From assembly GCA_040753955.1 (NCBI GenBank), contig JBFMDQ010000003.1, positions 17,312 to 81,311 of the forward strand: a stretch of DNA of 64,000 bases, given 5' to 3'. This DNA is from Nitrospirota bacterium (GTDB lineage: Bacteria > Nitrospirota > Thermodesulfovibrionia > Thermodesulfovibrionales > SM23-35). The translations under genes were made by a program, and so were the position numbers. This document shows positions 38,959 through 47,634 of this stretch, piece after piece (position 1 is the stretch's first letter; each line of letters begins with the position of its first letter). The notes under the pieces are model-generated. The model ran no database searches. It was not told the DNA's origin and saw only the letters and a list, made by a program, of their open reading frames with translations.

Positions 38959-38965
38959 AAAAGAA

Positions 38966-39190
38966 CTCCAATGATCAATAACCAAATACCAATAACCAAA
39001 TAAATTCCAATAATCAAAAACCAATAACCAAACAACATTAACCCTTAATTAGCAACTGAACCACTTGCACGGATTAACTGTGAAATGAGTTCTCTGTGGT
39101 TCTCTCTTCAAGGTCGAATTTTTGTTTGGTTATTGGAATTTTCTTCATTGGTTATTATTTGGATCTTGGAATTTGGTGTTTGGTTATTAT
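38966..39190. repeat. Long inverted repeat of ~70-nt heptamer-periodic arms (ATAACCA/AATACCA words) filling the hypE-pdxJ spacer
   Basis: The arm at 38966-39036 faces the inverted arm at 39121-39190, with an 84-nt centre. A third copy of the arm lies at 46935-47000. Confidence 0.75.
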
Positions 39191-39195
39191 CTGCA

Positions 39196-41279: not shown

Positions 41280-43778
41280 TCATCTTCCTGCCTTTATCCT
41301 TTCCCTGATTATATATGCCTGGCCGAGGGATATCCCGGCATCATTACATGCAACCTTTTCGTTGACATAGACTTCCATTCCTATGGATTTAAGCCTTGCG
41401 ATGGTCCTTTCGAGGAGATAAATGTTCTGAAATACCCCCCCGCTCAGAACAACTTCTTTTATCATATAAAGGGAAGAGAGCTTCTGCGCAATTCTAAAAA
41501 TAGCAGTGGCTACGGTGTTATGGAAAAGAGATGCAATAACACCTTCATCCTCTCCTTTTATTGAATCCTCTATAATCCTCAGAAAAGTCTGGGAGAAATC
41601 AATCTCTATGGCCTCTCTGAATTTTATATCTACAGGATAGTCATCAACTACATCAGGTCTCGTTATGGCTTCAAGTGCAATAGCTGCCTCTCCTTCAAAG
41701 GTATTTTTGTCACATATCCCGAGTATGGCTGAGACCACATCGAAGAGTCTCCCGGCTCCTGATGAAAGGGGCGAAAATTGTTTTTTATCGATAATCCTCG
41801 ATATGTTTTCCGTCGTCTCATGACCATACTTATCAAGAAAGCCTATGGACTCAAGATAATCCATCGCCTTATCTTGAGCCATGTTCCAAATATAGCTCAC
41901 AGCTGTCCTCCACGGTTCCTTAATTGCCACTTCACCCCCTGGAAGGGGAATATATCTGAAATGACCTACCCTTTCGAACCCCTCTATATTGGCAATTAAA
42001 ATTTCTCCACCCCAGAGATTTCCATCAGTGCCATAACCGGTTCCATCAAAGGAGAAACCTATAACCCTCCTCTTTATCCCCTTTTCAGCCATCACAGAAG
42101 CAATATGGGCATAGTGGTGCTGTATACCTATCTTTTCAATATCTTCCTGCCGCAATGCCCATTGTGTTGATAGATACCCGGGATGGAGGTCATAGGCAAG
42201 GGCCACAGGCTCTACCCTGTAAACATCTTTAAGGTTTTCTAAGCTCTCCTCAAAAAACCTCAATGTCTCGTAGTTTTCCATATCACCTATATGCTGACTC
42301 GGTATCGCAAAACCTCCCTTTGTGAGGGTGAAGGTGTTCTTAATATCAGCTCCACATCCGAGAACCTCAGGGCCCTCCTCGTGAAAGGGAATGGGGTCAG
42401 GGACATATCCGCGAGAACGTCTTATAAAAAAAGTCGGGAGTCGGGAGTCGGGAGTCAAGGATCCTAATTTTTGATTTTTAATTTTTAATTCTTGACTGAT
42501 GACTCTTACTACTGAATCATCAACCCGCATAAAAATATCTCTATTATGAATAAGAAAGGCATCAGCAATGTCTGAAAGCGTAGAGAAAGCCTCATTATTG
42601 TCTATGACGATAGGCTCTTCCGAGAGGTTGCCACTCGTCATGATAAGGGCATCGAAGTTAGTCGTTAGTCGATAGTCGATAGTCGATAGTCCTGAAGCTG
42701 TAGCCGCAGGCTTCAGCCTGCGAAATTTTTCATTTAAGGGATAAAAAAATAATAGATAATGCAACGGGGTATACGGAAGCATGAAGCCGAGGCAGGGGTT
42801 ATTCGGTGCAATTGCATCGGGAAGAGAGTTTTGCCTCTTTTTAAGTAGCACAATCGGTCTTTTGTTAGAAATTAAAAGCTCCTCCTCTTCTTTAGATACG
42901 TCGCAGAATTTTTTAATCGTTCCAACATCAGGCGCCATCAGGGCAAAGGGTTTGTTACTCTTTCTCTTCCTTAATCTCAACGTCTTTACTGCCTCATCGT
43001 TAGTTGCATCGCAGCCTAAATGAAACCCTCCAAGCCCCTTAATAGCAACAACTTTTCCTTCTTTCATGAGTTTTATTGTCGCCTCTATAGGATTTCCTTT
43101 TTCATAGACTTTTAGCTCTTCACCTAATAATCCCCTCATTCCCTCTTTATCCCTCTTAGTCCCCCCTTGGTAAGGGGGGAAATAGGGGGGTGAGGGGGGA
43201 TTACTTTCATTCTTTACTATTAATTCAACATGTGGACCGCATGCTGCACATGCATTCGGCTGGGCATGGAACCTCCTGTCTTCTGGATTATGGTATTCTT
43301 CCTCGCATTTAGGGCACATCTGAAAAACAGACATGGTAGTGCTCGGTCTATCATAAGGAACAGATTTTGTTATTGTATATCTTGGACCGCAGTTCGTGCA
43401 GTTTATGAATGGATAGAGGTAACGTCTGTCATTCTTATCCAGCAGCTCCCTCAAGCAGTCTTCGCATAACGAGACATCTGGAGAAATGAGGGTGAAACTC
43501 CCTTCGTCCTTACTCCTGACTATCTGAAAATCCTGATAACCATGATAGGGCATGGGAATTATATCAATTTCCATTATCTGTGAAAGAGGCGGGGCCTCTC
43601 TGGTAAGCCTCTCGATAAAGGTGGAGCTATTGTTACCTTCTATCTCGATAGTAACACCCCTGGATGAGTTCATCACGAGGCCCTTGAGATTCAAAGTTTT
43701 GGCAAGGCTATAAACAAAGGGCCTGAAGCCAACTCCCTGGACAATTCCCCTGACTAATATCTTCACCCTGGGTTTCAT
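41280..43778 (-). CDS. hypF: Carbamoyltransferase HypF carrying three in-frame repeat-derived insertions
   Basis: The 832-aa ORF has an acylphosphatase domain, two CxxC-x18-CxxC zinc fingers, a YrdC-like domain (AIKGLGGFHL) and a Kae1-like domain. Extra segments lie at 43116-43211, 42651-42743 and 42426-42500. Confidence 0.9.
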   Translation of the reverse strand: MKPRVKILVRGIVQGVGFRPFVYSLAKTLNLKGLVMNSSRGVTIEIEGNNSSTFIERLTREAPPLSQIMEIDIIPMPYHGYQDFQIVRSKDEGSFTLISPDVSLCEDCLRELLDKNDRRYLYPFINCTNCGPRYTITKSVPYDRPSTTMSVFQMCPKCEEEYHNPEDRRFHAQPNACAACGPHVELIVKNESNPPSPPYFPPYQGGTKRDKEGMRGLLGEELKVYEKGNPIEATIKLMKEGKVVAIKGLGGFHLGCDATNDEAVKTLRLRKRKSNKPFALMAPDVGTIKKFCDVSKEEEELLISNKRPIVLLKKRQNSLPDAIAPNNPCLGFMLPYTPLHYLLFFYPLNEKFRRLKPAATASGLSTIDYRLTTNFDALIMTSGNLSEEPIVIDNNEAFSTLSDIADAFLIHNRDIFMRVDDSVVRVISQELKIKNQKLGSLTPDSRLPTFFIRRSRGYVPDPIPFHEEGPEVLGCGADIKNTFTLTKGGFAIPSQHIGDMENYETLRFFEESLENLKDVYRVEPVALAYDLHPGYLSTQWALRQEDIEKIGIQHHYAHIASVMAEKGIKRRVIGFSFDGTGYGTDGNLWGGEILIANIEGFERVGHFRYIPLPGGEVAIKEPWRTAVSYIWNMAQDKAMDYLESIGFLDKYGHETTENISRIIDKKQFSPLSSGAGRLFDVVSAILGICDKNTFEGEAAIALEAITRPDVVDDYPVDIKFREAIEIDFSQTFLRIIEDSIKGEDEGVIASLFHNTVATAIFRIAQKLSSLYMIKEVVLSGGVFQNIYLLERTIARLKSIGMEVYVNEKVACNDAGISLGQAYIIRERIKAGR

Positions 43779-45852: not shown

Positions 45853-46944
45853 ATGGGTGACGAACTTTATATAAAGCGTGCCCTTAGGCTTGCAGCAAAG
45901 GCACGCTGTATGACAAGCCCGAACCCCATGGTTGGGGCTATAATTGTCAAGAATGGGAGAACAATTTCTGAGGATTTTCATAGAAGGCCTGGGACTCCCC
46001 ATGCTGAGGCTCTCGCTATAGAAAAGGCCGGAGAAAATGCCAGGGGTTCCACCCTTTATATAAATCTCGAGCCATGCTGCCATACAGAGAAAAGAACCCC
46101 TCCCTGCACAGAGGCTATCATTAGTGCGGGTATAAAAGAAGTGGTTATTGCTATGACAGACCCAAATCCAAAGGTCTCGGGCAGAGGAATCTCAGAGCTT
46201 CAGAAGGCTGGTATAAAAGTCAGATCAGGTATTCTCGAGAACAAAGCAGAGAGACTTAATGAGGCATATATAAAGTACATGACTACAGGAAAACCCTTTG
46301 TGATACTAAAGATTGCCATGACCCTCGATGGGAAGATTGCTACCCCTGAAGGGCAGTCTAAATGGATAACATCCGAAAAGGCAAGAAAGATGGTTCACCG
46401 TCTGAGAGGCAGCGTTGACGCAATCATAACAGCTATAGGAACAGTTAAAGCAGATGACCCTGAGCTTACGGTAAGGATAAAAGATGGTAAGAATCCCCGA
46501 AGGATCGTTATTGACCCTGACCTTGAAATATCTTTGAATGCAAAGGTTCTTAAGGTACCACCCCCGACAATTATAATAGCGAAAAAGTCAGCAGTCGAAG
46601 AAAAGAAAAAAACATTGTTCAATAAGGGTGTTCAAATCATCGAGTATAAGGGAGAAAAACTAAATCTCCACTGGCTCATGAGAAGGCTTGGGGGAAGAGA
46701 AATCACATCGGTTCTGATAGAGGCAGGCTCCTCGATGAATGCCCATGCCCTCGAAGAAGGAATTGTCGACAAGGTGATATTTTTCATTGCACCGAAGATC
46801 ATCGGAGGGAGAGAGTCATTCCCTGCTGTAGGTGGGAAGTCCTTCAGGAGGCTTGAAGAGGCATACCGTTTAAAGGATGTGAAGGTAAGAAGGGTAGGGG
46901 AAGATATCTTGATTGAAGGATATATAGATAAGAATAACCAATAA
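45853..46944 (+). CDS. ribD: Bifunctional riboflavin biosynthesis protein RibD (deaminase/reductase)
   Basis: The 363-aa ORF has the CDA motifs HAE and PCxH..(x)..PC, plus a C-terminal RibD reductase domain. The last codons and the stop lie in repeat DNA. Confidence 0.95.
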   Translation: MGDELYIKRALRLAAKARCMTSPNPMVGAIIVKNGRTISEDFHRRPGTPHAEALAIEKAGENARGSTLYINLEPCCHTEKRTPPCTEAIISAGIKEVVIAMTDPNPKVSGRGISELQKAGIKVRSGILENKAERLNEAYIKYMTTGKPFVILKIAMTLDGKIATPEGQSKWITSEKARKMVHRLRGSVDAIITAIGTVKADDPELTVRIKDGKNPRRIVIDPDLEISLNAKVLKVPPPTIIIAKKSAVEEKKKTLFNKGVQIIEYKGEKLNLHWLMRRLGGREITSVLIEAGSSMNAHALEEGIVDKVIFFIAPKIIGGRESFPAVGGKSFRRLEEAYRLKDVKVRRVGEDILIEGYIDKNNQ

Positions 46945-47030
46945 CCAAGCACCAAATTCCAAATAAATTACAATGACCAAATTCCAATAACCAAACAAAA
47001 AATCTCTGTAGCCGCAGGCTTCAATCTGCG
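46935..47030. repeat. Composite repeat: one ATAACCA-type arm followed by the 24-nt motif TGTAGCCGCAGGCTTCAATCTGCG
   Basis: The arm resembles 38966-39036. The 24-mer at 47007-47030 matches 42699-42722 inside hypF at 22 of 24 positions. Confidence 0.7.
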
Positions 47031-47163
47031 TTAAAGGAAATAGCCAAAGCCATTAAAAGGGCCATAAAAGAGAGATTCGGCATCTCACTATCCTGGAGAC
47101 CATCAGGGGTTAAAAGTGTAAATGTAAAATGAGGTACAGGTTGGTATTTCCACTGAGAGTTTC

Positions 47164-47634
47164 ATGACAATTTCTGTTGATGTTCAGACAAAGGTTTATG
47201 GTTCAGAAAAAGAAGCACAGATTCTGAAGAACATTTTAATTTCTAAATTAAAGAGGGAAAATTGGAAGGTGGTTGAAAGAGGAGGTCTTAATCTTTTAAT
47301 AGTCATTACCCATTTAAAACGGGTGGGGGGATTAAAAAGGTTTGTGATGGGATTTTTAGTAGGGCGTGCCTCTGTCAAGGCAGAAGTAACCCTTAAGGAT
47401 ATAAACGATAATTTGATAACTCAATTTTCTGTGAGCGGGGAATCTGCACCCTTTGAAATAATTCCTTTGATCACCATACCTTTCACTACCACAAGGCAAG
47501 CACTTAAAAAAGCGGCAAAACAGATATTAAATTCTCTAAGAGATGAAACACAGGGCAAAGGGCTCAAAGATTTGGCATTACAAAGTTTAAAAAACATTAA
47601 GAGTGAAACACAACATTATACTTTTAGAAAATAA
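47164..47634 (+). CDS. Hypothetical protein
   Basis: This is a 156-aa ORF with no family recognised. An upstream in-phase fragment without a start codon suggests a disrupted N-terminus. Confidence 0.4.
   Translation: MTISVDVQTKVYGSEKEAQILKNILISKLKRENWKVVERGGLNLLIVITHLKRVGGLKRFVMGFLVGRASVKAEVTLKDINDNLITQFSVSGESAPFEIIPLITIPFTTTRQALKKAAKQILNSLRDETQGKGLKDLALQSLKNIKSETQHYTFRK

Follow-up and report, generated by a model that had tools for sequence, protein, structure and literature searches.

The window, i.e. the entire analysed stretch of 64,000 nucleotides from a draft Nitrospirota MAG of 80 contigs, contains a ribD gene that is followed at its 3' end by two short repeats and a reading frame devoid of a start codon. 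Related repeats occur between hypE and pdxJ and inside hypF of the same window. The features are as follows (window coordinates):

38959–39195, minus strand: hypE-pdxJ intergenic hairpin with two inverted arms of the same heptamer family as the ribD-side arm
42660–42692, plus strand: (TAGTCGA)n heptamer tract (C3:59960-60011), adjoining the REP copy in hypF and translated in frame
42700–42722, plus strand: copy of the REP in antisense orientation within hypF, read as RRLKPAAT
45853–46944, plus strand: ribD (riboflavin biosynthesis deaminase/reductase), from the ORF list
46933–47006, plus strand: one arm, made up of decayed heptamers in tandem (AATAACC / AAATTCC type), of the hypE-pdxJ hairpin-arm family, with no inverted partner here
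47008–47030, plus strand: decayed monomer of a GTAG-tagged REP palindrome, with GTAG at 47008–47011
47028–47087, plus strand: piece 1 of the relic of a DinB-type DNA polymerase IV gene, ALKEIAKAIKRAIKERFGIS, profile positions 132–151
47082–47132, plus strand: piece 2 of the relic, comprising the polymerase C-terminus, ISLSWRPSGVKSVNVK, followed by the stop, profile positions 404–419 (profile end)
47164–47634, plus strand: 156-aa ORF, downstream neighbour of the relic, weakly DUF4410-like (22.1 bits, cut-off 26)

The last four codons of ribD (AAT AAC CAA TAA, with the stop at 46942–46944) all lie within the C/A-rich and G-poor tract 46933–47006. An earlier note on this DNA had placed them inside a repeat arm of about 65 nt, which is correct; the tract measures 74 nt. 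RibD of relatives ends with EGYI-x-K/R, that encoded here with EGYIDKNNQ. Nucleotide identity to the sister species (G001) amounts to 91 % through ribD and ends at 46945; downstream of ribD, G001 carries a convergent gene for an RNA-binding protein and neither of the two repeat parts. The sequence ATAACCAAT at the ribD end is common to both genomes and the sequence preceding it differs by 2 nt in length, because of which the alignment suggests that the old ribD TAA has come to lie out of frame in the present genome. The gene would then read on for 3–4 codons to the next in-frame TAA, supplied by the heptamer tract. In three other relatives, ribD matches are split in pieces around RibD residue ~246–250 (G007:C248:2130-3344, G016:C9:15380-16519 and G008:C2:85036-86108). 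Long frames are still open in G007 and G016 (420 and 396 aa, no stops), which suggests in-frame repeat insertions within ribD itself, and the G008 pieces occupy separate shorter frames (281, 137 and 87 aa), such that ribD may be broken there.

The ribD-side arm steps in sevens (AATAACC AATAACC AAGCACC AAATTCC ...). A repeat search of the window matched it to one arm of the hypE-pdxJ inverted repeat (38970–39035) with 82 % identity over 66 nt and to the other with 74 % complementarity over 42 nt; two blocks of 23 and 26 nt shared with these arms reach 96 %. The likeness to both arms had been estimated by eye at 70–75 %, which was slightly too low. The hypE-pdxJ pair itself folds as a hairpin of ~200 nt (-73.2 kcal/mol, z -6.0, none of 200 shuffles being as stable). 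Strand asymmetry of hairpin folding gave no clear sign of RNA function, the transcribed strand being favoured at three of only four informative loci.

Genome-wide, 179 tracts of period 7 (self-identity of at least 75 % at lag 7) were detected, versus 0–11 for the other periods among the control lags 4–11. The start of the ribD-side arm is one of these tracts (C3:64241-64275). Their heptamer units are very diverse (AAAAGTT, GAGAAGT, ATTTCGA and others), and 61 strict tracts, about a third, are located deep inside ORFs of at least 150 aa according to a crude ORF call. Arm-like loci number in the dozens: a dedicated scan for CCAA/TTGG-rich arms yielded 38 arms at 29 loci, versus five arms in the reversed-sequence control. 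All but two of these 29 loci are intergenic (27), and nine harbour inverted pairs, the CCAA arm coming first in each of the nine. On the REP-bearing contigs L077-L196, which stem from many phyla, period-7 tracts account for 0.9 % of the sequence, whereas tracts with a period of 6 or 8 account for 0.1 %. The occurrence of tandem heptamers is therefore not confined to this bacterial family or to cyanobacteria. A nested repeat locus of the present genome (G000) is found at G000:C32:14926-15131, where a gene stop precedes a CCAA-type and then a TTGG-type arm, separated by an inserted element (GTCATTGCGAGGAG...CGACGAAGCAATCTC); a consensus REP follows 8 nt after the second arm.

Directly after the ribD-side arm, positions 47007–47030 hold the motif TGTAGCCGCAGGCTTCAATCTGCG, which recurs with two mismatches at 42699–42722 inside hypF. 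Not one of 100 shuffles gave any match, and the claim that the motif directly following the arm is the one residing in the hypF coding sequence is thereby borne out. GTAG-tagged REPs and REPINs with their RAYT transposases are an established class of bacterial repeats (Nunvar 2010, PMC2817692; Bertels & Rainey 2011, PMC3116915; Di Nocera 2013, PMC3733652). The motif shares with them a terminal unpaired GTAG and a short GC-rich stem (6–13 bp) with a loop of 2–4 nt, its own layout being GTAG and a single base ahead of an 8-bp stem CGCAGGCT/AGCCTGCG that closes a TY loop (consensus CGCAGGCT-TY-AGCCTGCG), as in the layout given in PMC3733652. Seven copies with at most two mismatches are present in this genome, as singletons and one self-overlapping pair at C22, and all seven have kept the GTAG (42700–42703 in hypF), as have almost all copies in relatives. 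The stem sequence of the ribD-side copy is AATCTGCG; two private substitutions, by which AGCC has become AATC, remove two of the eight stem pairs, and 5–6 pairs are kept.

The REP is present in 41 of the 57 genomes of the taxonomic family, with no hits for the reversed control, and is most abundant in G007 (56 copies), G008 (47), G034 (41) and G006 (41). Most G008 copies form REPIN-like head-to-head dimers with a variant partner (...CGCAACCTAAAGGTTGCGGCTAC) at a distance of 5–30 nt, as determined for about 12 of the 20 loci read. In a scan of one genome per species, the exact 23-mer was found in at least 120 stretches from MAGs labelled as Nitrospirota, Chloroflexi, Planctomycetes, Ignavibacteria, Verrucomicrobia, Acidobacteria, Omnitrophota, Desulfobacterota and others, labels which may include binning errors.

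Candidate transposases were identified by clustering ORFs located within 300 nt of the REP at 120 loci from other phyla. The most recurrent ORF family comprises proteins of 155–170 aa with a HUH motif. Such short RAYT genes are flanked by inverted REP copies at three loci (L157, L131 and L124) and follow an array of 16 REPs at a further one (L145). The REP-flanked RAYTs are only 36–50 % identical to one another, and match Pfam Y1_Tnp as well as NCBIfam NF047646 'REP-associated tyrosine transposase' (83.1 and 81.9 bits, cut-off 80). Three genomes of the family were found to possess a REP-flanked RAYT, which is intact in G059, broken by a stop in G007 and reduced to a fragment in G017. This genome contains no homologue of the REP-flanked short RAYT at E≤1e-3 and no REP beside its five long Y1_Tnp genes. 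A search via Pfam PF01797 (28 loci in this genome, G006, G007, G008 and G034) revealed no REP-flanked Y1 transposases, and G006 has 41 REPs yet no Y1_Tnp match at all. Since the cognate RAYT gene is missing from the genome, the seven REP copies are best regarded as orphans with no fate other than decay. The genome being a draft of 80 contigs, the cognate RAYT may lie in a part missing from the assembly; scores near the NF047646 cut-off were obtained for the long RAYT-like genes of this genome, and it is possible that these genes act in trans on the REPs.

The five long genes (~320 aa; G000:C2:811-1209, C25:19540-19944, C58:4503-4904, C28:8956-9357 and C6:8275-8667) carry, besides Y1_Tnp, a helix-turn-helix-like region at the C-terminus. 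At least those on C2, C25 and C6 are flanked by long terminal inverted repeats of their own, e.g. GGGTCAAACC... and GGGGGACGTTGTTGAATAA..., which resembles the 'TIRYT' arrangement of PMC3733652. A degraded RAYT-like gene is located outside the window between cobalamin genes (G000:C6:58060-58560). It displays the HUH motif NHLHGIV, the stretch WQRNYYEHIIRNEDELNRIRQYIIENP and frameshifts, and contains a nested perfect palindrome, GTAGGGGCGGTTCGCGAACCGCCCCTAC, representing a second GTAG-type repeat family.

The present REPs differ from usual ones in being represented here by only seven single, decaying copies with no cognate RAYT, and in a 23-mer that is letter-perfect across many phyla while the flanked RAYTs are merely 36–50 % identical. 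A tentative explanation for a letter-perfect 23-mer in MAGs of a dozen or more phyla, the apparent breadth of which could be inflated by mis-binned contigs, is that the REP might be constrained beyond its own transposase or might spread alone between phyla. If true, the constraint could be exerted by, e.g., a conserved host factor or structure, and either option would depart from the usual picture of lineage-specific REP-RAYT pairs. In other respects the repeats resemble REPs and REP-RAYT systems: relatives harbour head-to-head inverted dimers, copies mostly follow genes, some reside in frame inside genes, some of the repeats supply stop codons, and genomes differ in their RAYT, some having one between copies of the same REP, others a broken one or none.

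The start-less frame extends from stop to stop over 46977–47129 (51 codons, between TGA at 46974 and TGA at 47130), lacks any ATG, GTG or TTG, and ends with ...SLSWRPSGVKSVNVK before the stop. A DinB profile, built from three full-length proteins of relatives that were assigned to DNA polymerase IV (NF002677, 285 bits, cut-off 256), was searched against 2371 six-frame pieces of the window, and the start-less ORF was the only significant match (full-sequence E 7.3e-5). It contains two collinear matches, to profile positions 132–151 and 404–419, the latter being the exact C-terminus. The homology begins at 47028 and shares three bases with the 3' end of the REP. On the DNA level, 47082–47136 is conserved in many genomes of the family, and its counterpart in G006 and G004 is the 3' end of a gene for ~400–420 aa, ending with ...VISP(A/S)W(R/K)PSGVK(N/S)(I/V)NVK before the stop. 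When the G006 protein was compared to this genome by tblastn, its C-terminal 16 residues aligned at 47082–47129 and its residues 122–139 upstream in the same frame at 47040–47093, with 61 % identity. Piece 1 is weak on its own (10.1 bits, tblastn E 7.7) and convincing only because it is collinear with, in frame with and adjacent to piece 2. These matches support the interpretation of the start-less frame as a two-piece relic of a Y-family, DinB-type polymerase gene instead of a gene in its own right.

The earlier note had taken the frame for real protein sequence and for the remainder of a gene deprived of its 5' part at the element; both hold, polymerase homology starting within 3 nt of the motif's 3' end. 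The translated search proposed there had a divided outcome. Phmmer of the 34-aa tail against 1.84 billion representatives returned three repetitive junk proteins only, the relic being short, and Pfam gave no match to the 51-aa ORF; the profile from relatives, in contrast, recognized the C-terminus of DNA polymerase IV. The verdict 'no homologue' initially drawn from phmmer was overturned by the DNA search in relatives.

The polymerase gene has lost ~130 codons at its 5' end and ~250 internal codons, leaving a start-less open frame of 34 codons and ~36 of ~404 residues, none of which belong to the catalytic core. Because tblastn detected no further pieces of the gene elsewhere in the assembly, deletion is likelier than inversion. 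An intact, 40 % identical polymerase paralogue of 340 aa is encoded at C11:38398-39396. The gene is wholly lost in the sister species G001; G031 retains a different, longer remnant (residues ~359–404) with a frameshift and an in-frame TGA for TGG, located before the same downstream gene. The synteny around the intact dinB copies of G004, G006 and G032 is not common to this genome, and no relative was found to carry a REP at that codon of an intact polymerase gene.

Taken together, the stretch 46933–47030 probably represents a scar left by deletion or rearrangement, at which two small repeats of unrelated kinds adjoin each other beside the polymerase relic. The comparison of ribD-downstream regions proposed in the earlier note delimited a synteny break, as identity to G001 ends at 46945 and identity to G031 starts at 47082, with arm, REP and relic piece 1 in between; it recovered no ancestral state, since synteny 3' of ribD differs in every relative with readable downstream sequence. 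That similarity to G001 ends at 46945 and that the REP abuts the relic argues for a scar. The following history would account for these observations. The REP family spread by means of its own RAYT in other genomes, and with the RAYT missing here the remaining copies decay. A REP, or a pair of REPs, would have sat in or beside the polymerase gene. The interior of this gene would have been joined to the 3' end of ribD by a deletion or recombination with its end point at the repeats; REP insertion and deletion may have occurred either way round. Today the stretch is most likely a neutral scar that merely supplies the last codons and the stop of ribD.

The junction between ribD and the relic is present in this MAG only, a draft of 80 contigs, and the synteny break falls exactly on repeated DNA, as would be expected if unrelated contigs of a metagenome bin had been joined through short repeats. 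Such an assembly chimera is very unlikely. The ribD-side arm is only about 82–96 % like other arms, and this in short blocks only, and the REP comprises no more than 23 nt with two private substitutions; as neither repeat is long or exact enough, an assembler with typical k-mers is unlikely to have been misled. Moreover, the 51 nt of 47031–47081 are unique in the genome and carry on the polymerase relic in frame.

A further alternative, implied by the composite repeat proposed in the earlier note, is that arm and 23-nt motif form one mobile element (MITE), inserted 3' of ribD as well as into hypF. The hypF copy bears on this directly. The HypF gene (41280–43778, minus strand) has all expected domains; its linkers contain insertion sites at three places (after residues ~191, ~345 and ~445) that are hypervariable and at which each genome examined displays a different repeat-derived peptide, e.g. 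PPFAKGGQGG, SKSQISNLKSQI or KELRVKSKTQGQNSELRTPNSEQ. The second site reads here RRLKPAAT, from the antisense REP, followed by ASGLSTIDYRLTTN from (TAGTCGA)n. The REP site is also occupied in G008 and G002, in G008 without an adjoining heptamer tract, and G009 has a decayed version (RSLDPMTT); the hypF REP is therefore old and the neighbouring heptamers are a later local addition. In favour of a single element, the 23-mer adjoins heptamer tracts at three of its seven sites in this genome (ribD, hypF and C32:15109), and in other genomes a period-7 tract is found no further than 25 nt away from six of 182 REP copies, versus 0.9 % background (P 0.006, uncorrected for intergenic bias). This association is weak, 97 % of the copies in other genomes having no heptamer neighbour. 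The heptamer beside the REP varies by site (AATAACC type, TAGTCGA and TTGGTTA type), so that hypF has a different heptamer from ribD, and the REP possesses a transposase as well as a dimer structure of its own. A second copy of the arm-plus-motif unit, or any additional copy of the composite element, was not found in the genome, and the two repeat classes occur mostly apart. The composite was hence rejected as a unit, and as an explanation of both sites it is very improbable; the ribD and hypF loci are linked by the REP alone.

Equally improbable is a working 3' RNA element of ribD, i.e. a terminator or stabilizing hairpin kept for its role. REPs, mostly located 3' of genes, are believed to function as RNA elements (PMC3733652), and where arms of this heptamer family are paired elsewhere, their folds are very stable. 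At ribD, however, only a single arm is present, the REP stem is short of two of its eight pairs, and the sister species has neither repeat part after the gene. No RNA fold of 46920–47170 was stable beyond shuffles (z +0.97), no terminator-like or promoter-like sites were detected at the locus in a scan, and Rfam gave no match at the gathering threshold for the whole window or at E≤1 for 46850–47250. Continued expression of the start-less frame, e.g. as a small protein from a non-canonical start, is least probable of all: the frame is open for 51 codons, but has no ATG, GTG or TTG, retains ~36 of ~404 residues with the catalytic core gone and no Pfam match, and its orthologous piece in G031 contains an in-frame TGA and a frameshift.

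The scar thus combines repeats of known kinds, a GTAG REP and a tract comparable to the STRR of cyanobacteria. The latter, reportedly described by Mazel et al. in 1990 (J Bacteriol), are said to be short tandemly repeated repetitive heptamers of heterocystous cyanobacteria with CCCCAGT, TTGGTCA and CAACAGT as published units. Likewise, the present tracts consist of tandem 7-nt units at many loci, often as inverted pairs forming intergenic hairpins, and TGACCAA, the reverse complement of TTGGTCA, is among the units of these arms. Unlike STRR, their host is no cyanobacterium, many tracts lie in frame inside long genes, and the ribD arm is heavily decayed and unpaired. With their diverse units and with REP-bearing relatives labelled Nitrospirota/Thermodesulfovibrionales, the heptamer tracts are STRR-like, not STRR. 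The small dispersed repeats (SDR) of Nostoc, reportedly treated by Elhai et al. in 2008 (Genome Res 18:1484), are said to be often nested in other repeats including heptamer tracts. The repeats analysed here are similarly very small and mobile; they differ in the weak association between REP and heptamers, and no sequence relationship to Nostoc SDR was found. The hypF REP is also reminiscent of Rickettsia palindromic elements (RPE) in being a palindrome that is kept in frame, occupies a loop separating protein domains and is common to several genera, and is unlike them in belonging to another sequence family, being far shorter (23 nt) and having an identifiable transposase elsewhere.

The locus illustrates the fate of a REP family without its transposase, i.e. 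a few decaying single copies, one of them an orphan at the scar of a lost translesion DNA polymerase gene. Where REPs reside inside genes, these are often genes for replication and repair (Di Nocera et al., PMC3733652), a pattern which the ribD-side locus fits. On the whole, the locus is a neat yet ordinary example of genome decay associated with repeats, adding detail and no new principle. A practical warning follows from the relic, the 34 residues of which were invisible to a single-sequence search of 1.8 billion proteins and clear with a small profile from close relatives.

Orthologues of the DUF4410-like ORF of 156 aa downstream of the relic are encoded by G031 and G004. At the point where this ORF begins, a paralogue from G004 (L016) extends further, with a lipoprotein signal peptide and ~38 more residues, and the copies in this genome, in G031 and at G004:C192 are probably truncated at their N-termini.
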